Origin: a virus
Lineage: Duplodnaviria > Heunggongvirae > Uroviricota > Caudoviricetes
Direction: 5' to 3' (one strand)
Virus record (IMG/VR): IMGVR_UViG_2896601577_000002
DNA: 33,080 bases
The notes beneath the pieces were generated by a model. It was not told the DNA's origin, did not search any database, and saw only the letters and a program-made list of their open reading frames with translations. The position numbers and the translations under genes are program-made. Below are positions 1 through 33,080 of the stretch, piece by piece. Numbering within the stretch: the stretch's first letter is position 1; each line of letters opens with the position of its first letter.

Positions 1-495
1 TTACTGATAGTGTTTTATGTTCAGATAATGCCCGATGACCTTGTCATGCAGCTCCACCGATTTTGAGAACGACAGCGACTTCCGTCCCAGCCGTCCCAGC
101 CGTCCCAGCCGTCCCAGCCGTCCCAGCCGTCCCAGCCGTCCCAGCCGTCCCAGCCGTCCCAGCCGTCCCAGCCGTCCCAGCCGTCCCAGCCGTCCCAGCC
201 GTCCCAGCCGTGCCAGGTGCTGCCTCAGATTCAGGTTATGCCGCTCAATTCGCTGCGTATATCGCTTGCTGATTACGTGCAGCTTTCCCTTCAGGCGGGA
301 TTCATACAGTGGCCAGCCATCCGTCATCCATATCACCACGTCAAAGGGTGACAGCAAGCTCATAAGACGCCCCAGCGTCGCCATAGTGCGTTCACCGAAT
401 ACGTGCGCAACAACCGTCTTCCGGAGCCTGTCATACGCGTAAAACAGCCAGCGCTGGCGCGATTTAGCCCCGACGTATCCCCACTGTTCGTCCAT
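1..495 (-). CDS. insB: IS1 InsB transposase reading frame (made as InsAB' by -1 frameshift), carrying an in-frame (LGR)n insertion
   Basis: Translation matches IS1 InsB ([16 protein letters not shown]...HYLNIKHYQ) except for repeated LGR tripeptides; frame is open upstream to about 590. Confidence 0.85.
82..216. repeat. 9-bp tandem repeat, 14 perfect units CCGTCCCAG plus one variant CCGTGCCAG
   Basis: Counted directly: perfect units 82-207, variant 208-216. Confidence 0.95.
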
Positions 496-539
496 TTCCG
501 CGCAGACGATGACGTCACTGCCCGGCTGTATGCGCGAGG

Positions 540-815
540 TTACCGACTGCGGCCTGAGTTTTTTAAGTGACGTAAAATCGTGTTGAGGCTAACGCCCATA
601 ATGCGTGCAGTTGCCCGGCATCCAACGCCATTCATGGCCATATCAATAATTTTCTGGTACGTACCGGGTTGAGAGGCGGTGTAAGTGAACTGCAGTTGCC
701 ATGTTTTACGGCAGTGAGAGCAGAGATAGCGCTGATGTCCGGCAGTGCTTTTGCCGTTACGCACCACCCCGTCAGTAGCTGAACAGGAGGGACAGCTGAT
801 AGAAACAGAAGCCAC
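540..815 (-). CDS. insA: IS1 InsA
   Basis: 91-aa product [22 protein letters not shown]... matches IS1 InsA. Confidence 0.9.
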
Positions 816-889
816 TGGAGCACCTCAAAAACACCATCATACACTAAATCAGTAAGTTGGCAGCATCACCCAAATGCTTTATTCATTCT

Positions 890-2384: not shown

Positions 2385-3553
<1,169 letters not shown>

Positions 3554-3926
3554 TGGAGCACCTGTGTTGTTCTGAGGTGAGCATATCACCTCTGTTCAGG
3601 TGGCCAAATTCAGTGTGCCACTTCATCCCCAGCCGGGAGGTAAATCCTCAACTGAAATAATTTCCGGCTCACTAATAAAGAATCGCCAGTCGCCCATGCC
3701 AAGTGAGGGATTTTTACGGAAACGCTTTTTTCTATCTGCCAACAAGTCAGCACGAGAACACTTCGCCTCTATCAGGCATGATGCTGAATTTCTGAATCCC
3801 ATAGCATCTGGCTGTTCTCCGGTACTGGTTACAGCAACAAAGCGGTCATGAAAGCAAACCTTGAACCCGTTGCGCTTAAGGAACTTGTACGCAATCTGAC
3901 AGAGTTCGTGGTGTGTTAACGCCATA

Positions 3927-6762: not shown

Positions 6763-6936
6763 TATTATCTCCCGTATGCTTTACGCAGAAATAAGCAGGC
6801 AATATGCATGTAATTTTCACCGTATTGTGCAATAAGGCAGGCGGTTAGACTGGCCCCCTGAATCTCCAGACAACCAGTATCACTTAAATAAGTGATAGTC
6901 TTAATACTAGTTTTTAGACTAGTCATTGGAGTACAG

Positions 6937-7298
6937 ATGATTGATGTCTTAGGGCCGGAGAAACGCAGACGGCGTACCACACAGGAAAAGATCGCAATTG
7001 TTCAGCAGAGCTTTGAACCGGGGATGACGGTCTCCCTCGTTGCCCGGCAACATGGTGTAGCAGCCAGTTATTTCTCTGGCGTAAGCAATACCAGGAAGGA
7101 AGTCTTACTGCTGTGGCCGCCGGAGAACAGGTTGTTCCTGCCTCTGAACTTGCTGCCGCCATGAAGCAGATTAAAGAACTCCAGCGCCTGCTCGGCAAGA
7201 AAACGATGGAAAATGAACTCCTCAAAGAAGCCGTTGAATATGGACGGGCAAAAAAGTGGATAGCGCACGCGCCCTTATTGCCCGGGGATGGGGAGTAA
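6937..7298 (+). pseudogene. insC: IS2 insC (OrfA) with frameshift from a 4-bp deletion
   Basis: Product matches InsC up to ...QHGVAAS, then shifts frame; the native frame resumes at [14 protein letters not shown]... (7113-7298). Confidence 0.75.
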
Positions 7299-8161
7299 GC
7301 TTAGTCAGCCGTTGTCTCCGGGTGTCGCGTGCGCAGTTGCACGTCATTCTCAGACGAACCGATGACTGGATGGATGGCCGCCGCAGTCGTCACACTGATG
7401 ATACGGATGTGCTTCTCCGTATACACCATGTTATCGGAGAGCTGCCCACGTATGGTTATCGTCGGGTATGGGCGCTGCTTCGCAGACAGGCAGAACTTGA
7501 TGGTATGCCTGCGATCAATGCCAAACGTGTTTACCGGATCATGCGCCAGAATGCGCTGTTGCTTGAGCGAAAACCTGCTGTACCGCCATCGAAACGGGCA
7601 CATACAGGCAGAGTGGCCGTGAAAGAAAGCAATCAGCGATGGTACTCTGACGGGTTCGAGTTCTGCTGTGATAACGGAGAGAGACTGCGTGTCACGTTCG
7701 CGCTGGACTGCTGTGATCGTGAGGCACTGCACTGGGCGGTGACTACCGGCGGCTTCAACAGTGAAACAGTACAGGACGTCATGCTGGGAGCGGTGGAACG
7801 CCGCTTCGGCAACGATCTTCCGTCGTCTCCAGTGGAGTGGCTGACGGATAATGGTTCATGCTACCGGGCTAATGAAACACGCCAGTTCGCCCGGATGTTG
7901 GGACTTGAACCGAAGAACACGGCGGTGCGGAGTCCGGAGAGTAACGGAATAGCAGAGAGCTTCGTGAAAACGATAAAGCGTGACTACATCAGTATCATGC
8001 CCAAACCAGACGGGTTAACGGCAGCAAAGAACCTTGCAGAGGCGTTCGAGCATTATAACGAATGGCATCCGCATAGTGCGCTGGGTTATCGCTCGCCACG
8101 GGAATATCTGCGGCAGCGGGCTTGTAATGGGTTAAGTGATAACAGATGTCTGGAAATATAG
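7256..8161 (+). CDS. insD: IS2 InsD (OrfB transposase)
   Basis: 301-aa product matches IS2 InsD. Confidence 0.85.
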
Positions 8162-8288
8162 GGGCAAATCCAGCGGTCTTGTGTGATGCCATATTCTTTA
8201 TAAAAGTCACAATAAAGCCTCCTGCGGATTAAGGTTGTAACAATCCCCGGCGATAAAACCGCAATAAACGTTCAGGGCATATTTGTTG

Positions 8289-8654
8289 TTATTGCGCTAA
8301 TTCTTTTTCGGCAGCAGCTTTTGTATACTCACATGCAAAACTCAGAATTTCGCTGCCGAGTGTTTTCGTTTCGTGATTACTGGACATATGTAATACCTGT
8401 GTTGCATGCAATAAATGATAAACATTTACCGCAAATGAATCAGGCTCCAGACAAATGCCTTCGTAATTATCTTGCTGTGAGGTTGTTTCTGTCATTGCTC
8501 CTGAAGTGCATGCGAGCCTGTTTTTGACAATTCTCTTTTCTCTAATCACTATATCGGCAACATCTATTGCCTTTACAACCTCCGGGAGAAGTTCCGGGTT
8601 TGTATAATCAAAGTCATCAACATGGAGAACAGTTATGTTTTCGAACTTTTTCAT
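8289..8654 (-). CDS. hypothetical protein (121 aa), second gene of the cassette downstream of cI
   Basis: ORF on the cI strand; no recognisable family. Confidence 0.5.
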   Translation of the reverse strand: MKKFENITVLHVDDFDYTNPELLPEVVKAIDVADIVIREKRIVKNRLACTSGAMTETTSQQDNYEGICLEPDSFAVNVYHLLHATQVLHMSSNHETKTLGSEILSFACEYTKAAAEKELAQ

Positions 8655-8782
8655 GGCTTCCTCAGCTGACTTATATGTTCTGCTATATAGCGAGTCTCAG
8701 AAGTGTTTTCATATTGAGACTGTTTCCGCAATGATTGATAAAAATGTTCGCATGTACCTTGAAGGGCGAAGCGGCGATTATG

Positions 8783-19103: not shown

Positions 19104-20153
19104 ATGCTTAATACTGTAAAAATATCCAGTTGTGAGTTAATCAACGCCGACTGCCTGGAATTTATCCGGTCGTTACCCGAAAATTCTGTTGACCTGATAG
19201 TCACGGACCCGCCGTACTTTAAAGTGAAGCCTGAGGGCTGGGATAACCAGTGGAAGGGCGACGATGATTACCTGAAGTGGCTGGAGCAGTGTCTGGCGCA
19301 GTTCTGGCGGGTGCTGAAACCTGCCGGAAGTCTTTACCTGTTCTGTGGTCATCGCCTGGCATCTGATATCGAAATCATGATGCGTGAACGCTTCAGTGTG
19401 CTGAACCATATTATCTGAGCGAAGCCGTCCGGACGCTGGAACGGATGCAACAAGGAAAGCCTGCGGGCGTATTTCCCCGCCACAGAGCGCATTCTGTTCG
19501 CGGAACATTATCAGGGGCCGTACCGCCCGAAAGATGATGGCTATGAGGCGAAGGGCAGGGTACTGAAACAGAATGTGATGGCCCCGCTGATTGCTTACTT
19601 TCGTGATGCGCGAGCTGCCCTGGGGATAACGGCAAAACAGATTGCAGATGCCACAGGAAAGAAAAACATGGTGTCGCACTGGTTCAGTGCCAGTCAGTGG
19701 CAGCTACCGAACGAAAGCGATTATCTGAAATTACAGTCGCTGTTTGCCCGGGTGGCAGAAGAGAAACATCAGCGGAGAGAACTGGAAAAGTCCCATTACC
19801 AACTGGTCAGCACATACAGTGAGCTGAGCCGGCAGTATATGGAACTGCTGAGTGAATATAAAAATTTGCGGAGGTATTTCGGTGTGACGGTGCAGGTGCC
19901 GTACACCGATGTGTGGACGTATAAACCGGTGCAGTACTATCCAGGGAAACATCCGTGCGAAAAACCGGCAGAAATGTTGCAGCAGATAATCAACGCGAGC
20001 AGTCGTCCGGGAGACCAGGTTGCAGATTTTTTTATGGGCTCAGGTTCAACGGTAAAAGCGGCACTGGCGCTCGGGCGTCGTGCGATTGGCGTTGAACTGG
20101 AGACCGGACGTTTTGAGCAGACAGTCAGGGAAGTTCAGGATTTAATCGTTTGA
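19104..20153 (+). pseudogene. DNA N6-adenine (DPPY-type) methyltransferase with in-frame TGA at 19416-19418
   Basis: Motif IV DPPY near the N-terminus, motif I FFMGSGST near the C-terminus; both halves in the same frame, separated by a single TGA. Confidence 0.75.
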
Positions 20154-20202
20154 AACGGATGAGATTGCAGAATTAATTACGCACCATTATTATTCTGCTC
20201 CC

Positions 20203-20278
20203 GGCCCTTTAGCTCAGTGGTGAGAGCGAGCGACTCATAATCGCCAGGTCGCTGGTTCAAATCCAGCAAGGGCCACCA
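20203..20278 (+). tRNA. tRNA with CAT anticodon, most similar to tRNA-Ile2 (ileX/ileZ-like)
   Basis: Canonical cloverleaf; acceptor GGCCCTT/AAGGGCC; anticodon loop CTCATAA; T-loop TTCAAAT; encoded CCA. Confidence 0.8.
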
Positions 20279-20285
20279 TCACATA

Positions 20286-20358
20286 CCGCCATTAGCTCAT
20301 CAGGAAAGAGCGCCAGCCTTCGAAGCTGGTTGCGCGGAGTTCGGGTCCCGAAGGCGGT
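20286..20358 (+). tRNA. tRNA-Arg(TCG)-like, atypical (possible pseudo-tRNA)
   Basis: D-arm and anticodon arm are canonical (loop CTTCGAA) but the T-stem 3' strand is one nt short, position 58 is G, there is an acceptor mismatch and no encoded CCA. Confidence 0.45.
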
Positions 20359-20374
20359 TCATTATCTGTATCCT

Positions 20375-20451
20375 GCGTTGTTAGCTCAGCCGGACAGAGC
20401 AATTGCCTTCTAAGCAATCGGTCACTGGTTCGAATACAGTAGAACGCGCCA
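20375..20451 (+). tRNA. tRNA-Arg(TCT)
   Basis: Cloverleaf with anticodon loop CTTCTAA; T-loop TTCGAAT; CCA encoded; one mismatch each in acceptor and T stems. Confidence 0.7.
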
Positions 20452-20466
20452 CACTTATTTTCCCTG

Positions 20467-20490
20467 GCTCGCTTTTGCGGGCTTTTTTTT
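20467..20490 (+). terminator. intrinsic terminator after the tRNA cluster
   Basis: GCTCGC-TTTT-GCGGGC followed by T8. Confidence 0.55.
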
Positions 20491-20686
20491 AAATGTCTCA
20501 CAATTCAGGCGGTTGACTGTTGTCTGGTTTGCGGGGAGTTTGTTAAAAGAAACTGGCATGGTGAATCCCCCTGTGCGGAGGGGCAATCAGCGAGTAGGTA
20601 TATGGGATAATCGCAGATTCAGGTGCTGGTACTGAATTCACCGGGAGGCACCCGGCACCATGCAATGGCACATAGCGCCACTCTCC

Positions 20687-20722
20687 AGCCCCTCTCCGGA
20701 GGGGCTGTTTATATTGATTTTG
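20687..20722 (+). terminator. GC-rich palindromic hairpin with T-rich tail
   Basis: AGCCCCTC-TCCG-GAGGGGCT followed by GTTTATATTGATTTTG. Confidence 0.45.
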
Positions 20723-20741
20723 TCAGATGTGAGTAAACTCC

Positions 20742-21077
20742 TTATGGACTTTGTTGTTTTAGCCCATAAGGACATATTTGCAGAGTGCAACGGTTATTAA
20801 AGCATTCATTCAATACGTTATCTGTATTTGTAGGGCATTCCTGGCTGTTTTTGATTAAATTCCAGAATGTTTTATTGAATGGTACTACGTTGTAAATGGT
20901 TACAGGTAGCACTTTGTTATTGAGCATGATGCCTGTGTGAGTCAGTGTAAATATACTTTCAGGAGGTAAGAAAGCATCCGATTGATACCAGATTATTAAT
21001 TTTATTTTACTCCATATGACTGAAAAAGATATTCCGCATGATGGCTGGATAACTGTATCAATCACAATCCACTTCAT
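20742..21077 (-). CDS. hypothetical AT-rich moron protein (111 aa, Cys-rich C-terminus) at the position stx occupies in Stx phages
   Basis: Minus-strand ORF with AGGA upstream of the ATG at 21077; local GC content far below flanks. Confidence 0.4.
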
Positions 21078-22391
21078 TTGGTTTCCTTGTTTATGCATTG
21101 CTGGTGATGTTCTGAAAAGTATAAATGATATTTTTGAATGTAAACCATAGAGCAGAATTATTTTTCTGATGTTGTTTATTGTTTATTTAAATGCAGGGTG
21201 GTTTATATCTCGTCTTGTAGTTTATCCATGCATATCTGCTTGATGATGAGGTTTTTATTTAAGGTATGGTTTTGTGTTTTTTCTGTATTACATGTCAGGT
21301 ATTTTAAAGAATCATTTTTCAGATGGTGGAAAGAACCATGGCATTTAAACACTATGATGTTGTCAGGGCGGCGTCGCCGTCAGATCTTGCGGAAAAGCTG
21401 ACACATAAACTGAAAGAGGGCTGGCAGCCGTTTGGTAGTCCGGTGGCCATAACCCCTTATACTCTGATGCAGGCGATTGCAGCAGAAGGTGCAGTAATCA
21501 GCGCCACCAGCAACCCGGAGTATTACTTTGTTGTGGTTCTGGCAGGGCAGTCAAACGGCATGTCGTATGGTGAAGGCCTTCCGCTGCCGGGGACATATGA
21601 CCGTCCGGACCCGCGTATTAAGCAACTGGCGCGTCGCAGTACGGTGACACCGGGCGGTGCAGCATGCAAATATAACGACATCATTCCGGCGGACCATTGT
21701 CTGCATGATGTGCAGGACATGAGCCGTCTTAACCATCCGAAAGCGGACCTGTCAAAGGGGCAGTACGGAACCGTGGGGCAGGGGCTGCATATCGCCAAAA
21801 AACTGCTGCCGTTTATACCGGCGAATGCGGGCATTCTGCTGGTTCCGTGCTGTCGTGGTGGTTCAGCGTTCACCACCGGAGCTGATGGCACATACAGTGA
21901 CGCGAGTGGTGCCTCGGAGAATTCAACCCGCTGGGGTGTGGACAAGCCGCTGTATAAGGACCTTATCGGTCGAACAAAAGCGGCACTGGAGAAGAACCCG
22001 AAAAATGTGCTGTTTGCCGTGGTGTGGATGCAGGGGGAATTTGATTTTGGCGGTACGCCGGCAAATCATGCCGCACAGTTTGGTGCGCTGGTTGATAAAT
22101 TCCGTGCAGACCTGGCGGATATGGCAGGCCAGTGCGTCGGTGGCTCTGCTGGCGGTGTTCCCTGGATATGCGGGGACACGACGTATTTCTGGAAGCAGAA
22201 GAACGAATCCACGTACCAGACGGTGTACGGCAGCTATAAAAATAAAACGGAAAAGAATATCCATTTCGTACCGTTCATGACCGATGAGAACGGGGTGAAT
22301 GTGCCGACGAACAAACCGGAAGAAGACCCGGACATTCTGAACCGCCCCGGGAATCCTGGAGACTAAACTTCCTGAGAAAGAGGTAAACAGG

Positions 22392-22718
22392 ATGACTAAA
22401 AATACTCGTTTTTCCCCCGAAGTCCGTCAACGGGCAGTCCGTATGGTTCTGGAAAGTCAGGGCGAATATGACTCACAATGGGCGACAATTTGTTCCATTG
22501 CTCCAAAGATTGGCTGTACGCCGGAGACTCTGCGTGTCTGGGTTCGCCAGCATGAGCGGGATACCGGGGGCGGTGATGGAGGGCTCACCACCGCTGAACG
22601 TCAGCGTCTGAAAGAGCTGGAGCGTGAAAATCGTGAACTGCGCCGCAGTAACGATATCCTTCGCCAGGCTTCCGCTTATTTTGCGAAGGCGGAGTTCGAC
22701 CGCCTCTGGAAAAAGTGA
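22392..22718 (+). CDS. IS629 OrfA
   Basis: 108-aa product [19 protein letters not shown]... Confidence 0.9.
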
Positions 22719-23605
22719 TGCCACTGCTGGATAAGCTGCGTAAGCTGTACGGGGTCGGACCGGTATGCAGTGAACTGCATATTGCCCCGTCAACGTATTA
22801 CCACTGTCAGCAACAGCGACATCATCCTGATAAACGCAGTGCCCGTGCGCAGCGCGATGACTGGCTGAAGAAAGAGATACTGCGCGTATACGATGGGAAT
22901 CATCAGGTATACGGTGTGCGTAAAGTCTGGCGTCAGTTGTTACGGGAAGGTATCAGAGTGGCCAGATGCACTGTGGCACGTCTCATGGCGGTTATGGGAC
23001 TTGCCGGTGTTCTCCGGGGTAAAAAGGTCCGTACGACCATCAGCCGGAAAGCCGTTGCCGCAGGCGACCGCGTAAACCGTCAGTTCGTGGCAGAACGACC
23101 TGACCAGCTGTGGGTAGCTGATTTTACTTACGTCAGCACATGGCAGGGCTTCGTCTATGTGGCGTTCATCATTGATGTGTTTGCCGGATACATTGTGGGG
23201 TGGCGGGTCTCATCGTCCATGGAGACGACATTCGTGCTGGATGCACTGGAGCAGGCGTTATGGGCCCGTCGACCGTCCGGCACGGTCCATCACAGTGATA
23301 AAGGTTCTCAGTATGTATCGCTGGCCTACACACAGCGGCTTAAGGAAGCCGGATTACTGGCATCAACAGGAAGTACAGGCGACTCGTATGACAACGCGAT
23401 GGCGGAGAGCATCAATGGTCTTTACAAAGCGGAGGTAATACACCGTAAGAGCTGGAAAAACCGTGCAGAAGTGGAACTGGCCACACTCACGTGGGTGGAC
23501 TGGTATAACAATCGACGATTGCTGGAAAGGCTGGGCCATACTCCTCCGGCAGAAGCAGAAAAAGCTTATTATGCTTCCATCGGAAACGATGATCTGGCAG
23601 CCTGA
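22715..23605 (+). CDS. IS629 OrfB transposase
   Basis: 296-aa IS3-family DDE transposase. Confidence 0.9.
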
Positions 23606-24655
23606 GTTCACAGATAAAACACTCTCCAGGAAACCCGGGGCGGTTCAATTCCGGGTATCGGTTATTACGGTTCGAAATGGCGTGACAGCTCAGCCACCTG
23701 GACGTCACAGGACAGGGCGAGCCATTTCAGTTCATGGGCTCGCCGTGGGATTATTTCCGACCGTCTGGCAACGGCGATTCTGAGCTGCGCGGGTAAGTCT
23801 TCTGCGTTTGTTAATGGTACTGCCGGGGTGGTTGTTCCAGACAGGCCGGTTACCACCTCAGAGTCTGTAATTTTTTACGATGCCAAAAAAGCTACAGACA
23901 ATCAGCTGAAACCTTATGGCTGGGACGGTATGTATGGCAGACGCACACTGGTTGATGACAGCGGCAATAAAGCTCTGCGAATTGAGAAAAATAACAGCGC
24001 GAAATCCTGGTCAATGTACTGTGATATTGCTGCAGACAAGGCAAAACTTTTACTGGAAAAAGGCGGGGAAATTGCTGTCCGGTTTAAAATCCCCGAAAAC
24101 GTCAATCTTGAGACAACCAGAAACAAGTATGCCTTTGGTTTGTACTGGCGAATAGCGGAATGGCCGGGTGAGGGTGGTGAAGGCCATCTGAGTTCTTTCT
24201 TTGTCCAGACAGATAAAGCCAGTATTAATGTTGCATACCATCATACAGTTAATCAACAAAAAGAACTTGGCACGTTTGGCGCATTCGACCATGACTGGCA
24301 TACGCTTGCATTTAAATTTAAGGGCAGTAACAGCATTAATGTTACTCCGGTGCTTGATGGTGTGGATGGACAGGCGTTTGACCTGGTGAAATGGGCCAAT
24401 ACTGCTAATGGACTCAACAGGTTTGTCATTACGGATATTACAGGTAGTGCAGAAACCTACCCTGTACTTATTGATACGGTGGAAGTTAAAGCAAACAAAG
24501 CTGGAGCAGCCGCATAATTGCTAAAAAAAGCCGCCAGCGGCAGGAATGGAAGCTGGCGGAGGTAATCCCAATGGAGAATGTAAAGAAAAGATGCTTTCGT
24601 ACATTGGTTTTTAAATGAAAACAATTCTCATTGTCAACCATAACGGTAAGAAATT

Positions 24656-24838
24656 ATGACATTTATTCATCAGGTGATGCTGTACTTCTGTACGGCGGTC
24701 TGTGTGCTGTATCTTCTTTCGGGTGGGTACAGGGCTGTGCGCGATTTCTGGTGCAGGCAGATTGATAAAAGGGCCGCTGAGAAAATCAGCGCCAGTCAGT
24801 CAGCCGGAAGCAAACCCGAAGAACCCGTTACTCCTTAA
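24656..24838 (+). CDS. hypothetical small membrane protein (60 aa)
   Basis: ORF with hydrophobic N-terminus; weak SD. Confidence 0.3.
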   Translation: MTFIHQVMLYFCTAVCVLYLLSGGYRAVRDFWCRQIDKRAAEKISASQSAGSKPEEPVTP

Positions 24839-24863
24839 CAACCCCTTTCAGCGAGAAAATCCC

Positions 24864-25109
24864 ATGTCAGAAATCACATCCCTGGTCACTGCAGAGGCAG
24901 TGAAGGAAGTCCTGCGCTCTGAAGAAGTCCGGAGCGCACTGAAACAGAAACTTCGCCAGAATCTTGAGTCGCGTCTTGATGCAGAAGTGGATGCCATTCT
25001 GGATGAGCTGCTGGGCGTAGCAGCGGTTCCTGAGCCGGAAGGTATCGCGGGTGACGGGAGTGCTTCAGATGGCGGTGAACCTACACCTGACAGCGACATG
25101 ATGATGTAA
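24864..25109 (+). CDS. hypothetical acidic protein (81 aa) upstream of the holin
   Basis: [25 protein letters not shown]...; more protein-like than the antisense ORF. Confidence 0.45.
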
Positions 25110-25185
25110 GCATGCGCAAGGGACCATCGGTGTGTGCCGGTGGTCTTTATATTGTTGTGAGCTTCCGGATTGCGGGAGACGGGGT

Positions 25186-25401
25186 ATGTACCAGATGGAA
25201 AAAATCACAACAGGTGTGTCATACACCACGTCAGCGGTGGGAACGGGCTACTGGTTCCTGCAGTTGCTGGACAGGGTTTCCCCGTCTCAGTGGGCGGCAA
25301 TAGGCGTGCTGGGGAGTCTGTTGTTTGGGCTGCTGACATATCTGACTAACCTGTATTTCAAAATCAGAGAGGACCGTCGTAAGGCGGCGCGGGGAGAGTA
25401 A
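25186..25401 (+). CDS. S: class II holin (pinholin, S21-like), dual-start motif MYQM
   Basis: 71-aa product ...[68 protein letters not shown]. Confidence 0.85.
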
Positions 25402-25405
25402 AGCG

Positions 25406-25750
25406 ATGAAGAAAAAATACGAACTGGTTGTTAAAGGGATAAATAATTACCCGAATAAGATTACTGTTACTGTGGCACTGGAAATTGGTGGGTATCCGTC
25501 ACTGTTGTTGCCAGATGTGGCGATTAGTCTTGACCGTACTGAAGATGCCACGCTGGAGTTTTACGAAGCTGAGGCGAAAAAGCAGGCGAAGCAGTTTTTC
25601 ATGGATGTTGCTGCCGGGTTATGTGAAGGGGATGGTCCGTTGCCGGAAAAGCGCCCCGTAATTTTAGAGGCGCAGGATGTGTTGATAACCTACAGAGGAA
25701 AACTACCGGGAATAATTACGGGTTCTCTGAAGACTCCACCGCTGGCCTGA
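25406..25750 (+). CDS. hypothetical protein (114 aa) between holin and endolysin
   Basis: ATG 4 nt after the S stop, with GGGGAGAG SD inside the 3' end of S; E. coli-like codon usage. Confidence 0.55.
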   Translation: MKKKYELVVKGINNYPNKITVTVALEIGGYPSLLLPDVAISLDRTEDATLEFYEAEAKKQAKQFFMDVAAGLCEGDGPLPEKRPVILEAQDVLITYRGKLPGIITGSLKTPPLA

Positions 25751-25800
25751 AGACTTAACATATCCAGGGATTTGAAATCGATAAACCCTGATAAATATCC

Positions 25801-26334
25801 ATGAACACCAAAATCAAATACGGCCTGTCGGCTGCCGTTCTGGCGCTGATTGCCGCAGGTGCGCCTGCGCCTGAAATCCTCGACCAGTTTCTGGATGAAA
25901 AGGAAGGTAACCACACCACGGCATACCGTGATGGCGCGGGTATCTGGACCATCTGCCGCGGTGCCATCCTGGTGGATAGTAAACCTGTCGTCCCGGGCAT
26001 GAAGTTGTCGAAGGAAAAATGCGACCAGGTCAACGCCATTGAGCGTTATAAGGCGCTGGCATGGGTGGAGCGCAATATTAAAGTGCCGCTGACCGAACCC
26101 CAGAAAGCGGGTATCGCGTCATTTTGTCCCTATAACATTGGCCCCGGTAAGTGTTTCCCGTCGACGTTTTACAGACGGATTAATGCTGGTGACCGCAGGG
26201 GAGCATGCGAAGCGATTCGCTGGTGGATTAAGGACGGTGGCAGAGACTGCCGTATCCGCTCAAATAATTGCTACGGTCAGGTATCCCGGCGAGACCAGGA
26301 AAGTGCGCTGGCGTGCTGGGACATCGACAGATAA
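25801..26334 (+). CDS. R: SAR endolysin (phage lysozyme R)
   Basis: N-terminal signal-anchor YGLSAAVLALIAAGA and lysozyme core; matches the Stx-phage R type. Confidence 0.9.
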   Translation: MNTKIKYGLSAAVLALIAAGAPAPEILDQFLDEKEGNHTTAYRDGAGIWTICRGAILVDSKPVVPGMKLSKEKCDQVNAIERYKALAWVERNIKVPLTEPQKAGIASFCPYNIGPGKCFPSTFYRRINAGDRRGACEAIRWWIKDGGRDCRIRSNNCYGQVSRRDQESALACWDIDR

Positions 26335-26428
26335 GCAGAATATTTTGCTGAAAAATAAGGCATGAGCACGCGGACGGATAACACGAAATCCTGCGAACTG
26401 GCGAAACGTAAGTGAATAAAAGTAAAAA

Positions 26429-26465
26429 CCCCGTTTGTTGGCACCAAGCGGGGTTTTGTGTTTCT
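26429..26465 (+). terminator. strong intrinsic terminator downstream of R
   Basis: 9-bp stem CCCCGTTTG/CAAGCGGGG, 7-nt loop, followed by TTTTGTGTTTC. Confidence 0.6.
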
Positions 26466-26490
26466 GACCTTGAGTAAGGCAAGGGAGAAC

Positions 26491-26673
26491 ATGGCGAAGT
26501 ATAAACGAATTCTGTTGAGGTTGACCATGAAAAACGGCCTTGAACTGAAAGCGCCTGTAACTGATGACATCAGCAGAGCACTGGCTTTTGCCATTAAGTG
26601 GGTGGCGGTCGGTGTTGCTGTGTCCCCGATGCTGTATGGGCTGGCAAAACTGGTCATTGCGTTGAAATCGTGA
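26491..26673 (+). CDS. hypothetical small protein (60 aa) with C-terminal hydrophobic helix
   Basis: ATG at 26491 with SD AGGGAGA. Confidence 0.4.
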
Positions 26674-26687
26674 AGGGAGGATTAAGC

Positions 26688-26819
26688 ATGTCAGACAAAC
26701 TCATAACGCTGGCGAAGATCCTCTGTGTAATTGTCGGCATTTCATTTTCACTAATGCTGGTTGCTCTTTTTCTTTCCATGGCCTGGATGATGTTGTCTTC
26801 GTCGGGGCTGCTGGGGTGA
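26688..26819 (+). CDS. hypothetical small membrane peptide (43 aa), translationally coupled to Rz
   Basis: Perfect SD AAGGGAGG 7 nt before the ATG; stop TGA overlaps the Rz GTG start (GTGA). Confidence 0.5.
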
Positions 26820-27289
26820 ACATAAACCGAATGCTTTCCGCGTTTACCGTTATTCTGCTGGTGGTCTGTGGTGCGCTGTGGCTGGCAACAGACCATTACC
26901 GTGATAACGCCATCACCTACAAAGCGCAGCGCGATAAAAAAGCCAGAGAGCTGGAGCTGGCAAACGCAACCATTACTGACATGCAGCAGCGCCAGCGTGA
27001 TGTTGCTGCGCTTGATGCCAGATACTCAAGGGAATTAGCCGATGCGAGAGCTGAAAATGAAACTCTGCGTGCTGATGTTGCCGCTGGTCGTAAGCGCCTG
27101 CGGATCAACGCCACCTGCTCCGGTACCGTGCGTGAAGCCACCGGCACCTCCGGAATGGATAATGCAACCGGCCCCCGACTGGCAGACACCGCTGAACGGG
27201 ATTATTTCACCCTCAGAGAGCGGTTGATGACAATGCAGAAGCAACTGGAAGGGGCGCAGGAATATATCCGCACTCAGTGTATTAACTAG
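26816..27289 (+). CDS. Rz: i-spanin Rz
   Basis: Matches lambda Rz ([30 protein letters not shown]...[22 protein letters not shown]). Confidence 0.85.
27042..27227 (+). CDS. Rz1: o-spanin Rz1 lipoprotein, embedded in Rz in the +1 frame
   Basis: [17 protein letters not shown] lipobox and Pro-rich region, as in lambda Rz1. Confidence 0.8.
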
Positions 27290-27312
27290 TATTTTTGTTA
27301 TCCGGAGAATGC

Positions 27313-27537
27313 ATGAAGAAATTACTGGTAACCGTAAAGCCTTTTCAGGGAACAATTCCGTTCCGTATTTTGCAGCGTGGTCGTGTTCTTGTTGAAGGTT
27401 CGTTCAGTGGTAAATGTACGCAATTACACTCCCGGACCTTTCAGGTGAATGCCACGAATGAAGAGCTAACCGTTGAGTGTACGATGAATGCCGCTAAATG
27501 CCGCATGGTATCCGCTGCATTACAGCCAGTGTGTTGA
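27313..27537 (+). CDS. hypothetical protein (74 aa) downstream of Rz
   Basis: ORF with SD GGAGA. Confidence 0.35.
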   Translation: MKKLLVTVKPFQGTIPFRILQRGRVLVEGSFSGKCTQLHSRTFQVNATNEELTVECTMNAAKCRMVSAALQPVC

Positions 27538-27906
27538 GCGACCTTATTAACCATGCGCGGTATTGTCGCCGTATCCCCGCATTAACAGAGACCGCAGCCC
27601 GACCGGGAGACTCCTCTGCGCGAGTGTGCGGGGATAATCAAAAACGATACACACCGGGGTTTACCGCGTTAACGGAGCGCGGCGTTGTCCCCTCATGGTC
27701 GCTGGTCCGGTGCGATGGTGGAAGAAACCGGACGATGTGTTACCTCGCAAGCTCTGTTATGTCATGTGTCTGATTTGTGATTTAAGTCGGATAATTGTCG
27801 TTGCCATTAAGCAGAGGATTGATGACCGACAGGGTGGCATTGTTAGAATAAGTGAACCGCCCCGGGAATCCTGGAGACTAAACTTCCTGAGAAAGAGGTA
27901 AACAGG

Positions 27907-28233
27907 ATGACTAAAAATACTCGTTTTTCCCCCGAAGTCCGTCAACGGGCAGTCCGTATGGTTCTGGAAAGTCAGGGCGAATATGACTCACAATGGGCGA
28001 CAATTTGTTCCATTGCTCCAAAGATTGGCTGTACGCCGGAGACTCTGCGTGTCTGGGTTCGCCAGCATGAGCGGGATACCGGGGGCGGTGATGGAGGGCT
28101 CACCACCGCTGAACGTCAGCGTCTGAAAGAGCTGGAGCGTGAAAATCGTGAACTGCGCCGCAGTAACGATATCCTTCGCCAGGCTTCCGCTTATTTTGCG
28201 AAGGCGGAGTTCGACCGCCTCTGGAAAAAGTGA
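27907..28233 (+). CDS. IS629 OrfA
   Basis: Identical product to copy 1. Confidence 0.9.
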
Positions 28234-29120
28234 TGCCACTGCTGGATAAGCTGCGTAAGCTGTACGGGGTCGGACCGGTATGCAGTGAACTGCATATTGC
28301 CCCGTCAACGTATTACCACTGTCAGCAACAGCGACATCATCCTGATAAACGCAGTGCCCGTGCGCAGCGCGATGACTGGCTGAAGAAAGAGATACTGCGC
28401 GTATACGATGGGAATCATCAGGTATACGGTGTGCGTAAAGTCTGGCGTCAGTTGTTACGGGAAGGTATCAGAGTGGCCAGATGCACTGTGGCACGTCTCA
28501 TGGCGGTTATGGGACTTGCCGGTGTTCTCCGGGGTAAAAAGGTCCGTACGACCATCAGCCGGAAAGCCGTTGCCGCAGGCGACCGCGTAAACCGTCAGTT
28601 CGTGGCAGAACGACCTGACCAGCTGTGGGTGGCTGATTTTACTTACGTCAGCACATGGCAGGGCTTCGTCTATGTGGCGTTCATCATTGATGTGTTTGCC
28701 GGATACATCGTGGGGTGGCGGGTCTCATCGTCCATGGAAACGACATTCGTGCTGGATGCTCTGGAGCAGGCGTTATGGGCCCGTCGACCGTCCGGCACGG
28801 TCCATCACAGTGATAAAGGTTCTCAGTATGTATCGCTGGCCTACACACAGCGGCTTAAGGAAGCCGGATTACTGGCATCAACAGGAAGTACAGGCGACTC
28901 GTATGACAACGCGATGGCGGAGAGCATCAATGGTCTTTACAAAGCGGAGGTAATACACCGTAAGAGCTGGAAAAACCGTGCAGAAGTGGAACTGGCCACA
29001 CTCACGTGGGTGGACTGGTATAACAATCGACGATTGCTGGAAAGGCTGGGCCATACTCCTCCGGCAGAAGCAGAAAAAGCTTATTATGCTTCCATCGGAA
29101 ACGATGATCTGGCAGCCTGA
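28230..29120 (+). CDS. IS629 OrfB transposase
   Basis: Identical product to copy 1. Confidence 0.9.
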
Positions 29121-29188
29121 GTTCACAGATAAAACACTCTCCAGGAAACCCGGGGCGGTTCAAAGACTTATTCTTATCTGTGCCGGGA

Positions 29189-29521
29189 ATGAAAATGAAA
29201 AGAAACCTTCCGTTAATTATTTTGTTGTCTTCTCTGGTTATGGGCTGTACGCAACATAAAACAGATATGCCCCGACAGTTGGTTAAGGCATTACCACAAT
29301 ATCCGGCCTATGCAGCGGCAAATTATATAAAGGGACGGGTTGATGTGAGGTTTGATATTGGTGCTGATGGTACTGTCACCCGAATTGAGTTTATTCGTTC
29401 AGAGCCGCACCATCTGTTTGATGAGCAGGTTGTAAAGGCGATGGCAAAATGGCGATTTGAGAAGGACAGGCCGTGTAAAGGCGTGAAGAAAACGTTTATC
29501 TTTAGTCCTTCCGCACCCTGA
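29189..29521 (+). CDS. putative lipoprotein with TonB C-terminal-like domain
   Basis: Signal peptide with lipobox (LVMGC); segment YPAYAAANYIKGRVDVRFDIGADGTVTRIEFIRSEPHHLFDEQVVKAMAKWRF resembles the TonB_C fold. Confidence 0.55.
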   Translation: MKMKRNLPLIILLSSLVMGCTQHKTDMPRQLVKALPQYPAYAAANYIKGRVDVRFDIGADGTVTRIEFIRSEPHHLFDEQVVKAMAKWRFEKDRPCKGVKKTFIFSPSAP

Positions 29522-29652
29522 TTATTTCATCAGAAATTAATTATCACTCTGTTGTTATTCTGTACATCCCGGCAGGGTAAGTCTTGTTCCGTCGGATATG
29601 AAGATGAAATATTGTTGGAGGACAGTGGGTACCTGCTCCTGTAACCGAACGT

Positions 29653-29853
29653 TCATTTCTCGTTATTTGTCATGCTGGCCGGGCGCAGATGCGTTGCATC
29701 TGTTGCCAGCCTTCTCCTGCAGGCTTCAATAACCCACGCTGAAAAGTTTCCTGAACCTTTCAGATCAAGAGCGATGTTAATTTGTTCAATCATCTGGTTT
29801 GGAAATCGGATGTTGCGGGTTGTTGTTCTGCGGGTTCTGTTCTTTGATGACAT
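29653..29853 (-). CDS. hypothetical small basic protein (66 aa)
   Basis: ORF; possible relation to small prophage DUF3950-type proteins is recollection only. Confidence 0.4.
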   Translation of the reverse strand: MSSKNRTRRTTTRNIRFPNQMIEQINIALDLKGSGNFSAWVIEACRRRLATDATHLRPASMTNNEK

Positions 29854-29899
29854 AATGTTTCCCCATATTCAGTGTTGCTGATTTGTATTATCTGAAGTT

Positions 29900-31420
29900 G
29901 CTTTTACGTTAATTTGATGCAGATCAATCAATACGATAGTAAGGCAGTATGACTTTCCGTGAGACAGATGCTGGCCAACGTGGGATATTTAACGCGGGTT
30001 AACATCGTTGTCAGAGCCGCATGGGTGAGCTGTTGCTACACCCCGGTATTTCCACCACGGAGGCCAGCATGAACAACAATAACACATTGTACGTCGGGTT
30101 AGATGTTCACAAAGAATCGATTACTGTCGCTTATGCTATCAATTCAGAACCTGTTGAACTGATGGGTAAAATTGGCACATCACCTACTGATATTCAGAAT
30201 CTTTGTAAACGTCTCAGGTCAAAGTCATCGCAGGTCAGTATCGTTTATGAAGCGGGGCCCTGTGGTTATGGACTTTATCGTCGGCTGGTGAAATCCGGTT
30301 TTGACTGCATGGTCTGCGCCCCCTCACTTATCCCGAAAAAACCGGGGGAGCGGGTTAAAACCGATCGCCGTGATGCCATCAGACTTGTGCGTTCACTGCG
30401 TGCAGGAGATCTTTCTGCTGTCTACGTACCCGGCATTGAAGATGAGGCATTCCGGGATTTGGCCCGGGCATGGGCATCTGCCCGCGATGATTTACGGCAT
30501 GCAAGGCAACGTCTGAAATCGTTTCTTCTGGTTCATGGGGTCCATTATGTCGGGCGAGCAGATTGGGGCCCTGCACACCGACGCTGGCTCAGCAAATACT
30601 CATTCGAAAGTCCCTGGCGACAATTAGCTTTTGACGAACACCGTCGTACAATAGAAGACCGGCAGGCACAATGTGAACGGCTGGAATCCGCCCTGAAGGA
30701 GGCCGTTACCGAATGGAGGCTGTATCCGGTAGTAGAGGCGCTGCAAGCCATGCGAGGGATTCAGTTTATTACTGCGGTTGGATTAATTTCTGAACTGGGT
30801 GATCTGACCCGTTTTGAACATCCACGACAACTGATGTCATGGTTTGGTATCACGCCATCAGAATATTCATCGGGTGGAAGCAGACATCAGGGCAGCATTA
30901 CCAAAGCCGGAAACAGCTATGCCAGAAAGCTATTGGTCGAGGCAGCGTGGAGTTACCGTCATCCGGCACGCATCAGTCCGGCAATACAAAAAAGGCAGGA
31001 AAATTTACCCCGCCCCGTCATTGACAGAGCATGGGATGCTCAACTCAGGCTTTGTAAGAGGTATCGAAAACTTCAGGCCAAAGGAAAGAATGTCAATATT
31101 ACAATTGTTGCTGTTGCACGTGAGCTGGCGGGTTTTATCTGGGATATGGGCCGAATAGCAATGTCTGTCGCACAACAACCACAATGTCACAAATAAAAAT
31201 GAGAATAACCAGTTCCCTGAAGGCGACGTAGCCCGGTACAAGAGTAACCCACGTTAGCGCTTGGCGACGGCGGAACAAAGCTGATTCGCGACGTAAGAAA
31301 GTGGCAGGCTCATATGACGGACCTCTGTAATGCGGTATCCAACCCGCGAATATCAGCGTGATTCACCGTCGGATTTACTGCTACGTCGCCCTCAGGGAAT
31401 TAAACCTAAAAAGAAAATCG
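29900..31420 (+). mobile_element. IS110-family insertion sequence; boundaries cannot be set from sequence alone
   Basis: DEDD-type transposase gene; this family lacks conventional terminal IRs and TSDs. Confidence 0.3.
30069..31196 (+). CDS. IS110-family (DEDD) transposase
   Basis: N-terminal YVGLDVHKESITVAY and KTDRRDA motifs; C-terminal Transposase_20-like region; SD GGAGG. Confidence 0.85.
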   Translation: MNNNNTLYVGLDVHKESITVAYAINSEPVELMGKIGTSPTDIQNLCKRLRSKSSQVSIVYEAGPCGYGLYRRLVKSGFDCMVCAPSLIPKKPGERVKTDRRDAIRLVRSLRAGDLSAVYVPGIEDEAFRDLARAWASARDDLRHARQRLKSFLLVHGVHYVGRADWGPAHRRWLSKYSFESPWRQLAFDEHRRTIEDRQAQCERLESALKEAVTEWRLYPVVEALQAMRGIQFITAVGLISELGDLTRFEHPRQLMSWFGITPSEYSSGGSRHQGSITKAGNSYARKLLVEAAWSYRHPARISPAIQKRQENLPRPVIDRAWDAQLRLCKRYRKLQAKGKNVNITIVAVARELAGFIWDMGRIAMSVAQQPQCHK

Positions 31421-31439
31421 TCAAAATTAGAGATTCCGG

Positions 31440-33080
31440 TTTGACACGGAAAGTCATATCAGCGTCAACGGAGCACCGTATTGACGCTTATTTATTGGTG
31501 AGTGCTACGTTCCATGGCAGGAGTTCGTCAACACGGTTGGAAGGCCATTCCGGCAGTACGCTCAGGATATAGCGCAGATACGCTTCCGGATCGATACCGT
31601 TCAGTCGGCAGGTGCCGATCAGCCCGTACAGTAGCGCACCACGCTCTCCACCGTGATCGCTGCCGAAGAACATAAAGTTTTTCTTTCCGAGACAGACTGC
31701 ACGAAGCGCTCTTTCCGCGGCATTATTATCCGCCTCAGCCAGACCATCATCACTGAAGTTGCACAACGCAACCCAGTGCTTCCTGATATACCGGAACGCA
31801 TCTCTCAGACGGCATTTTTTCGATAACGTGTGTTCTTTCTCCTGCATCAGCTTATACAGGGAAGTCAGTAGCGGTTTACTCTGCATTTGCCTGACCGCCA
31901 GGCGTTCAGACACCGGCAACCCGCGTATTTCGTGCTCGATGGCGTACAGCTCACCGATTAGTTTCAGGGCTTCTTCCGCTGTCGCGCTTTTGGTACTGAT
32001 ATATACATCGTGGACTTTGCGCCGCGCATGAGCCCAGCATCCTGCTTCCGTCAACGCGCCGCCTTCTCGTTCGGCACTGAACAGCCGATCGTAACCATTA
32101 AACGCATCTGCCTGCAGGATACCCCGGAAGGGACTAAGGTGCTGCTCCGGATGTTTACCCTGATGGTCCGGTGAGTAGGCGAACCAGACCGCCGGAGGCT
32201 CTGGCGAACCGGCATTCCTGTCATCCCGGACATACGTCCAGATATATCCTGTTTTCGCCTTCTTCCTGCCCGGTGCCAGCACTTTTACTGGTGTGTCATC
32301 AGTGTGAACTTTGCGGCTGTTCATCACATAACGGTACAGAGCATCATTCAGCGGCGTCATTAACTGGCAGCACGCGTCAACCCAGTTGGAGAGTAATGCA
32401 CGGCTCAGTTCGACACCCTGACGGGCAAAAATTTCACTCTGACGATACAGTGGCAGGTGTTCGCAGTATTTTCCCGTTAACACGCGGGCAAGTAACCCCG
32501 GGCCCGCGATACCACGCTCTATCGGACGGGATGGTGCCGGTGCTTCAACGATGCAGTCACATTTTGTACAGGCTTTTTTTACCCGTTCTGTGCGGATCAC
32601 TTTCAGAGCGCTGCTCACCAGTTCCAGTTGTTCTGCGCTGACTTCCCCCAGATAATCCAGCTCACCGCCACACTCCGGGCAACAGCTTTCTTCTGGCTCC
32701 AGGCGATTTATTTCGCGGGGCAGATGCTCCGGTAACGGGCGACGATGACGAGACTGTCGCAACTGGCGGGGAACCTGCGGATCGTCTTCCCGCCCACTGT
32801 AACGATCACTGTCCTGTTCGCGTTGTTTCAGCAGGGCCTCAGCCTGTTCAACTTCACGACGCAGTTTTTCAGAACGGGTACCGAACAGCATCCGGCGCAG
32901 TTTTTCTATCTGAGCCCGCAGATGTTCTATTTCCCGTTCATCTTCTTCGATCTTTTCTTCGGCGCGGGCCAGTGCAGAGCGCAGGAAGGCCTCCGTCTCT
33001 TCAACCAGACTCAGTTGCTGGTCTTTCTGACGGAGCTGGCATTCCAGTTCTGCAATGCGAATGAGGTATTTTTGATTCAT
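31440..33080 (-). mobile_element. IS66-family element, partial (tnpC end; remainder beyond the right edge)
   Basis: TnpC-like gene followed by an IR-like palindromic sequence TAAGCGTCAATACGGTGCTCCGTTGACGC. Confidence 0.5.
31488..33080 (-). CDS. tnpC: IS66-family transposase TnpC
   Basis: 530-aa product with N-terminal coiled coil, Cys cluster CPECGG...CTKCDC and IS66 TnpC-like core; ATG sits exactly at the window edge. Confidence 0.85.
   Translation of the reverse strand: MNQKYLIRIAELECQLRQKDQQLSLVEETEAFLRSALARAEEKIEEDEREIEHLRAQIEKLRRMLFGTRSEKLRREVEQAEALLKQREQDSDRYSGREDDPQVPRQLRQSRHRRPLPEHLPREINRLEPEESCCPECGGELDYLGEVSAEQLELVSSALKVIRTERVKKACTKCDCIVEAPAPSRPIERGIAGPGLLARVLTGKYCEHLPLYRQSEIFARQGVELSRALLSNWVDACCQLMTPLNDALYRYVMNSRKVHTDDTPVKVLAPGRKKAKTGYIWTYVRDDRNAGSPEPPAVWFAYSPDHQGKHPEQHLSPFRGILQADAFNGYDRLFSAEREGGALTEAGCWAHARRKVHDVYISTKSATAEEALKLIGELYAIEHEIRGLPVSERLAVRQMQSKPLLTSLYKLMQEKEHTLSKKCRLRDAFRYIRKHWVALCNFSDDGLAEADNNAAERALRAVCLGKKNFMFFGSDHGGERGALLYGLIGTCRLNGIDPEAYLRYILSVLPEWPSNRVDELLPWNVALTNK

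Follow-up and report, generated by a model that had tools for sequence, protein, structure and literature searches.

Two separate IS629 insertions bracket the lysis cassette of a degraded lambdoid prophage in a probable Shigella genome

Introduction

This report deals with two copies of the insertion sequence (IS) IS629 that bracket the lysis genes of a prophage, found in a 33,080-nucleotide stretch of DNA (hereafter the window) held as the Caudoviricetes virus record IMGVR_UViG_2896601577_000002. IS629 is a member of the IS3 family, has IS1203 and IS3411 as isoforms, and is known from Shigella and enterohaemorrhagic Escherichia coli. The full-length element measures 1310 bp (PMC3064760), its insertions are flanked by target-site duplications (TSDs) of 3-4 bp, and 62% of its copies reside in prophages (PMC3271280).

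The closest described systems come from E. coli O157:H7. Stx2a prophages carry between zero and three IS629 copies, one of them inside a lysozyme gene (PMC4587872), and in Stx2a and other lambdoid prophages of this serotype, IS629 copies make up most of the differences between otherwise identical prophages (PMC4587872, PMC3271280). Deletions by homologous recombination between two IS629 copies have also been demonstrated experimentally (PMC3064760). In that study of the O157:H7 islands OI-43/48, a new full-length IS629 lay in direct orientation to another one, the two bracketing dispensable genes, and deletion products of 54-63 kb were isolated and sequenced. In Shigella, more generally, IS expansion drives gene loss (PMC7373316).

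The window resembles these systems in several respects. Like the O157:H7 prophages, it holds several strain-specific IS629 copies, including copies in the late/lysis region; unlike them, it probably comes from a Shigella host, has no stx genes, and is a remnant that, as far as the window extends, has no genes for terminase, head, or tail. With the OI-43/48 case it shares the precondition for a deletion, whereas only the precursor, and no product, was found here. We regard it as very probable that the pair stems from two separate IS629 insertions into a defective lambdoid prophage, and that the bracketed unit is a functionless by-product of IS expansion. Below, we first describe the pair and the relatives that lack it, then weigh its origin and its possible consequences, and end with the genes around it.

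Anatomy and Identity of the IS629 Pair

The two copies (A and B) were delimited by a repeat search and a base-by-base comparison, which reproduced the boundaries given for them in the original prediction (Table 1). They lie on the same strand with their starts 5515 bp apart and are 99.7% identical, a likeness that chance cannot produce between two 1.3-kb sequences. Measured over its outer ends, the bracketed unit runs from 22338 to 29162 (6825 bp). A blastn comparison of the IS with the window returned no IS629 fragments besides the two copies.

Both copies have terminal inverted repeats of 25 nt, matching at 23 of the 25 positions and reading 5'-TG ... CA-3' (TGAACCGCCCCGGG...CCCGGGGCGGTTCA). 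Two overlapping frames lie between them, identified by Pfam in both copies: OrfA (108 amino acids, aa) contains the HTH_Tnp_1 domain (PF01527), and OrfB (295 aa) combines HTH_21 (PF13276), the rve integrase core (PF00665), and PF13683. The frames of copy A overlap at 22715-22718, just after a GGAAAAAG run, and each copy has a full-length match to the ALIL pseudoknot, which signals programmed -1 frameshifting in the transposase genes of the IS3 family.

Plasmid copies from Shigella boydii and Shigella dysenteriae share 99.2-99.5% identity with copy A and the best E. coli copies 99.1%, while a RefSeq copy annotated as "IS3-like element IS629 family transposase" matches it at 98.2% and 99.0% over two halves. 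The length of 1310 bp, the TG/CA repeats, the overlapping frames with their frameshift signal, the TSDs of 3-4 bp, and the sequence identity are thus all those of IS629. Compared with the IS629 of Shigella and E. coli, the window copies agree in length, termini, frames, ALIL pseudoknot, rve domain, TSDs, and prophage location, and no substantive difference was seen, copy A being a minor allele with a synonymous patch of four single-nucleotide polymorphisms.

Empty Sites in Close Relatives

The flanks, read on both sides of each copy, bear out the earlier claim of separate TSDs, ATTC for copy A and AAG for copy B. The state before insertion can be read from a close relative. Positions 11338-32366 of the window are present in the 4.6-Mb sequence CP026867.1 with 0 mismatches in 21,029 bases, and this is the source genome. 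A second sequence, CP026866.1 (locus L003), which was reached via a look-up of the DUF1327 protein, aligns colinearly to 14093-22337, 23648-27852, and 29163-33080, at identities of 99.98%, 99.95%, and 100%, respectively. Adjacent alignments share 4 nt and 3 nt, corresponding exactly to the two TSDs; both sites of CP026866.1 are thus empty, ATTC and AAG each occurring once. As both sites are empty and the 4.2-kb inner segment is nevertheless present, this segment predates either IS.

The same picture emerges from the wider set of loci (L001-L025): three of them (L003, L004, and L022) have an empty site A and 15 an empty site B, and occupied junctions are confined to the source genome. A look-up of the 229-aa C-terminal fragment of NanS-p, the esterase interrupted by copy A, returned the source genome and one uninformative 1.25-kb read-assembly contig only. 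Both insertions are therefore recent and strain-specific. Because the TSDs are separate, the sites are empty in CP026866.1, and the alleles differ, we read the pair as two independent simple insertions, in line with what had been proposed from the sequence.

By analogy with other IS3-family elements, both copies would have arisen by copy-out/paste-in transposition from other genomic copies. Copy A hit the middle of nanS-p, inactivating this esterase gene, and copy B the intergenic stretch between Rz/Rz1 and a TonB_C-domain gene.

Alleles and Donors

About four differences between the copies, all of them synonymous in orfB, had been noted at the outset, and the number is exactly four. They fall at IS positions 779, 857, 887, and 908 (window positions 23116, 23194, 23224, and 23245), each at a third codon position of orfB (in V, I, E, and A codons), and the OrfA and OrfB translations are identical. 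All four are confined to 130 of the 1310 bp (23116-23245 in copy A, 28631-28760 in copy B); by our own calculation, four random changes would cluster so tightly with a probability of about 0.004.

An alignment with four other IS629 copies marks copy B as the common allele and copy A as the odd one. The patch of copy A is found unchanged (171/171) in IS629 on virulence plasmids of S. dysenteriae, S. boydii, and Shigella flexneri. Moreover, the flanking DNA of CP026866.1 and the window differs at about 4 of ~16,400 positions, a divergence at which the IS should have gained only about 0.3 differences since insertion. Because the four differences cluster and the patch of copy A pre-exists on Shigella virulence plasmids, the simplest reading is that each insertion had its own donor copy. 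With two IS629 alleles already in existence, at least two alleles are active, or exchanging patches, in these genomes.

The Pair as a Possible Deletion Substrate

Two direct 1310-bp copies at 99.7% identity constitute a deletion precursor. RecA-dependent recombination between them would delete 5515 bp, comprising one IS, the 3' part of nanS-p, and the S-R-Rz/Rz1 genes, and would leave a single hybrid IS629 with ATTC on its left and AAG on its right. To serve as a substrate for such a deletion would be the sole mechanistic consequence of the pair.

The check proposed in the original prediction, namely a search for a single IS629 joining 22337 to 29163, returned nothing in the E. coli genomes, the contig collections, or the exact-protein index. 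Among 5,426 complete E. coli genomes, no place covers both outer flanks (1500 bases left of copy A and ~720 right of copy B). Nor does any of these genomes cover at least 80% of the 10.8-kb region, which means that the source genome is absent from this set. Searches with exact patterns across the outer junctions, two for copy A on its left (42 and 32 nt) and one for copy B on its right (32 nt), had no match in viral contigs, in species-representative genomes (one per bacterial species), and in metagenome contigs. The left junction, and with it the truncated NanS-p of 342 aa, would survive in a deletion variant, and in the exact-protein index this protein occurs on one contig only, CP026867.1; the 347-aa form that results from an earlier start of the open reading frame (ORF) has no exact-protein match. 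These searches covered assemblies rather than raw reads of the source strain, and short-read assemblies break at IS copies.

The earlier claim that homologous recombination could delete or mobilize the unit thus keeps its status as a potential: a deletion is mechanistically expected and has an IS629 precedent, but no event was seen. A lack of heterogeneity and of IS629-mediated rearrangement in related genomes had been named as what would speak against it. Heterogeneity was indeed not found in the assemblies searched; on the other hand, a related S. flexneri prophage does show an IS-associated loss in nanS-p, albeit not the predicted event.

Another IS629-Type Pair Around the Same Module

This related prophage (locus L004) is that of S. 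flexneri serotype 6 CCH060, the strain to which CP099865 is assigned (PMC11708030). It belongs to the same prophage family and lies between pot transporter genes. As a second and independent case, it likewise holds two direct 1310-bp IS629-type copies (regions 7112-8759 and 14574-15883), which bracket the 3' part of nanS-p, S, R, Rz, and also the TonB_C gene. The family and the bracketed module are thus shared with the window, whereas the insertion sites, the allele (98.1% identical), and the upstream TSD differ. The upstream copy has no TSD; next to it lie an IS2 truncated to its first 339 bp and a nanS-p that has lost 443 bp. The downstream copy has the TSD AAC and sits inside an IS66-family element. 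CP026834.1 (L007) has lost the 5' part of nanS-p, next to IS1 and IS2. IS-associated loss does occur in this region, although not in the form of the predicted event. The known prophage bias of IS629 is the simplest explanation for the recurrence of an IS629-type pair in S. flexneri 6.

Weighing the Alternatives

Could the whole 6.8-kb segment have entered as one composite transposon, using the outer left inverted repeat (IRL) of copy A and the outer right inverted repeat (IRR) of copy B? Two intact direct IS629 copies with intact ends around a passenger segment have the look of such an element. The outer flanks, however, are ATTC and AAG and share no duplication, each IS having its own TSD, and CP026866.1 has the passenger segment in the same position and order, at 99.95% identity, but with neither IS629 copy. 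Furthermore, nanS-p reads through the junction as one ORF once the IS is removed, and the junction sequences were found nowhere else in the collections searched. We give this scenario practically no chance, and arrival as a composite transposon was rejected on two counts: there is no shared outer TSD, and relatives without both IS keep the inner segment in place. That the empty-site relatives once had the copies and lost them by precise excision, the insertions being old, is very improbable. IS629 excision is known where an IS-excision enhancer is present (PMC9943667), yet CP026866.1 and each of the other lineages sampled would have had to excise both copies precisely, given three loci with an empty site A, 15 with an empty site B, and one genome with the occupied state; no result indicates an excision enhancer in these genomes. 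Nor do we give much credit to a long-read assembly artefact that created one copy or duplicated the region. The odd 15-unit 9-bp array in the IS1 of the same window could reflect an assembly or polishing problem, but a collapse or duplication would not make clean and distinct junctions, proper 3-4 bp TSDs, and copy-specific polymorphisms, which renders an artefact extremely unlikely.

Local hopping, in which one copy gave rise to the other within the prophage and no second donor was involved, deserves somewhat more attention, although we still consider it unlikely. Two strain-specific insertions in the same orientation and only 4.2 kb apart, in a prophage whose close relative has none, would fit it, as would the preference of IS629 for prophage DNA (PMC3271280). 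A daughter copy should, however, be identical unless converted later, and the copies instead show four changes where ~0.3 are expected, packed into a tenth of the element against the odds calculated above, with both alleles already existing elsewhere in Shigella. Finally, the pair could be more than debris, either because its outer ends co-mobilize the lysis cassette or because the insertions were selected for uncoupling genes from their promoters. The composite version, if true, would mean that the outer IS629 ends mobilize a holin-endolysin-spanin cassette as a 6.8-kb element. The selection version would mean that copy A uncouples the potentially lethal lysis genes and copy B the TonB_C gene, as one step towards domesticating the remnant, and the recurrence in S. 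flexneri 6 would then be convergent rather than a matter of insertion bias. A promoter-like site (ATGACC, 16 nt, TG-TAGAAT) does occupy 27822-27849, copy B starting 3 bp after it, and the target of copy B is the centre of a 17-bp near-palindrome (empty site AGAATAAG-A-CTTATTCT); copy B may thus separate the TonB_C gene from its promoter or operator. This is a weak lead, because scanning the surroundings of copy B for promoters and terminators yielded no more sites than shuffled sequence did, and we see only a very slim chance that the pair is anything but debris.

Some points do count against our preferred account of two separate insertions in a Shigella prophage. The name IS629 was assigned by comparison with annotated copies and not with the ISfinder reference X51586. 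The clustered differences that we attribute to two donors could instead reflect a patch of gene conversion after insertion. No deletion product or other rearrangement of this pair was seen, so that the step in which it serves as a deletion substrate is one that we infer. The Shigella host, likewise, is deduced from the three lines of evidence given below.

The Bracketed and Interrupted Genes

The coordinates of all features are collected in Table 1. The 6825-bp unit contains the 3' part of nanS-p, S, R, and Rz/Rz1, the very content that had been listed for it, as assessed by Pfam on the window ORFs; these assignments agree with the gene calls at an identical public locus.

Table 1. Features of the 33,080-nucleotide window, ordered by position
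Feature	Position	Strand	Evidence or remark
IS1	1-871		Window start; 9-bp tandem array in insB
IS911-type element	2385-3589	-	orfA 3251-3589, orfB 2385-3224
IS2, full, 1327 bp	6846-8172		99.5% identical to the copy in CP026834.1 (L007)
Q-like late antiterminator gene	17709-18529		1-nt deletion in A-run near 18079
Three tRNA genes	20203-20448		Rfam
Small RNA STnc100	20527-20716		Rfam
nanS-p-type sialate O-acetylesterase, 5' part	21338-22337	+	DUF1737 (PF08410) and SASA (PF03629); cut by copy A
Copy A TSD, left (ATTC)	22334-22337		Flank comparison; 4-nt overlap at the empty site of L003
IS629 copy A, 1310 bp	22338-23647	+	Repeat search and base-by-base comparison
Copy A IRL	22338-22362
Copy A orfA	22392-22718
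Copy A ALIL pseudoknot	22673-22789	+	Rfam RF01497, 120.2 bits, E 5.5e-31
Copy A A-run GGAAAAAG	22708-22715
Copy A orfB	22715-23605
Copy A IRR	23623-23647
Copy A TSD, right (ATTC)	23648-23651
nanS-p, 3' part (DUF6645)	23652-24517	+	Pfam PF20350; colinear with L003
DUF1378-type ORF, 60 aa	24656-24838	+	Matched to the equivalent 60-aa ORF in L004, L006, and L010; uncalled in L011
DUF826-type ORF, 81 aa	24864-25109	+	Pfam on the identical locus L011
Holin S, class II, P21 type, 71 aa, intact	25186-25401	+	PF04971, E 9e-33
DUF1327 (YdfR-type), 114 aa	25406-25750	+	PF07041
Endolysin R (phage lysozyme), 177 aa, intact	25801-26334	+	PF00959
Spanin Rz, 157 aa	26816-27289	+	PF03245
Rz1, 61 aa	27042-27227	+	PF06085; nested in Rz in another frame
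Copy B TSD, left (AAG)	27850-27852		Directly after the promoter-like site
IS629 copy B, 1310 bp	27853-29162	+	Repeat search and base-by-base comparison
Copy B IRL	27853-27877
Copy B orfA	27907-28233
Copy B ALIL pseudoknot	28188-28304		Rfam, 120 bits
Copy B orfB	28230-29120
Copy B IRR	29138-29162
Copy B TSD, right (AAG)	29163-29165		3-nt overlap at the empty site of L003
TonB_C-domain gene, 108 aa	29195-29521	+	PF03544; outside the bracketed unit, directly 3' of copy B
IS110-family element, 1517 bp	29944-31460		375-aa DEDD transposase
IS66-family element	31461 to window end

Copy A splits nanS-p between the DUF1737/SASA and DUF6645 domains and separates the 3' part from the start and promoter of the gene. 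The interrupted ORF, as called, continues into the IS, where it stops at 22366 (342 aa). Removing the IS and one ATTC in silico restores a single nanS-p ORF of 626 aa, and the intact nanS-p of CP026866.1 measures 621 aa.

Downstream of nanS-p, two small ORFs of the kind found in lambdoid late regions (the DUF1378- and DUF826-type ORFs, together 24656-25109) precede a lambdoid lysis cassette in the order holin, endolysin, and spanin pair, with intact reading frames; the two small ORFs and the DUF1327 gene are intact as well. The exact DUF1327 protein encoded within it is widespread among lambdoid prophages. Copy B is intergenic, between Rz/Rz1 and the TonB_C gene and about 30 bp upstream of the latter, which it has probably cut off from its upstream region.

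Prophage Decay and Other Elements

The window as a whole is a decaying, heavily degraded lambdoid prophage remnant. It holds seven IS copies in 33 kb: an IS1, an IS911-type element, an IS2, the two IS629, an IS110-family element, and an IS66-family element. Several genes are split, namely dnaB (292 + 163 aa), the DUF968 gene (275 + 53 aa), and an N6/N4 DNA methylase gene (104 + 161 aa), and the window has no terminase or morphogenesis genes after the lysis genes. The Q-like gene, compared with an intact 273-aa homologue, is broken by its deletion into overlapping ORFs of 166 and 157 aa. This 1-nt deletion makes expression of the lysis cassette doubtful, and the damage to Q has probably silenced the lysis genes already.

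Some further observations concern the other mobile elements. The IS911-type element and the IS2 interrupt the early region of the prophage, and the site of the IS110-family element is empty in S. flexneri 6 CCH060, with a 2-nt overlap. Inside insB of the IS1, a perfect 9-bp array, CCGTCCCAG x 15, occupies 82-216; its in-frame translation is about 14-15 repeats of Leu-Gly-Arg. CP049281.1 (L031) has this IS1 at the corresponding site, with two array units only. Either the transposase gene has truly expanded by 117 bp or the array was created by long-read assembly.

Between Q and nanS-p lie the DNA methylase gene, the three tRNA genes, and an iraM-like gene. The tRNA genes and STnc100 sit between the methylase and iraM-like genes, the place where Stx phages carry stx. 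Finally, isrK and a C4 antisense RNA are found by Rfam at 11254-11439, beside an antirepressor-like gene.

Host Assignment

The host chromosome, CP026867.1, is probably that of a Shigella from the boydii/dysenteriae/flexneri-6 group. This is suggested by the four best matches to the IS629, which are S. boydii plasmid copies with 99.4-99.5% identity and neighbouring accession numbers. It is further suggested by plasmid CP049282, which is the companion of the related prophage in CP049281.1 and is S. boydii; from this plasmid, CP049281.1 itself is taken to be probably S. boydii. The third line of evidence is the related prophage in S. flexneri 6 CCH060 (PMC11708030).

Significance

The finding is real but ordinary, since IS629, its TSDs, its preference for prophages, prophages with several copies, and deletions between copies were all known before, and it adds little beyond annotation. 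Nonetheless, its junctions can be used as strain markers, and CP026866.1 and CP026867.1 form a clean before/after pair for the study of IS629 target choice. For the biology of the probable Shigella host, the locus is a small example of how IS dismantle prophages: the two insertions inactivate one nanS-p-type gene and leave the lysis cassette open to a possible 5.5-kb deletion.

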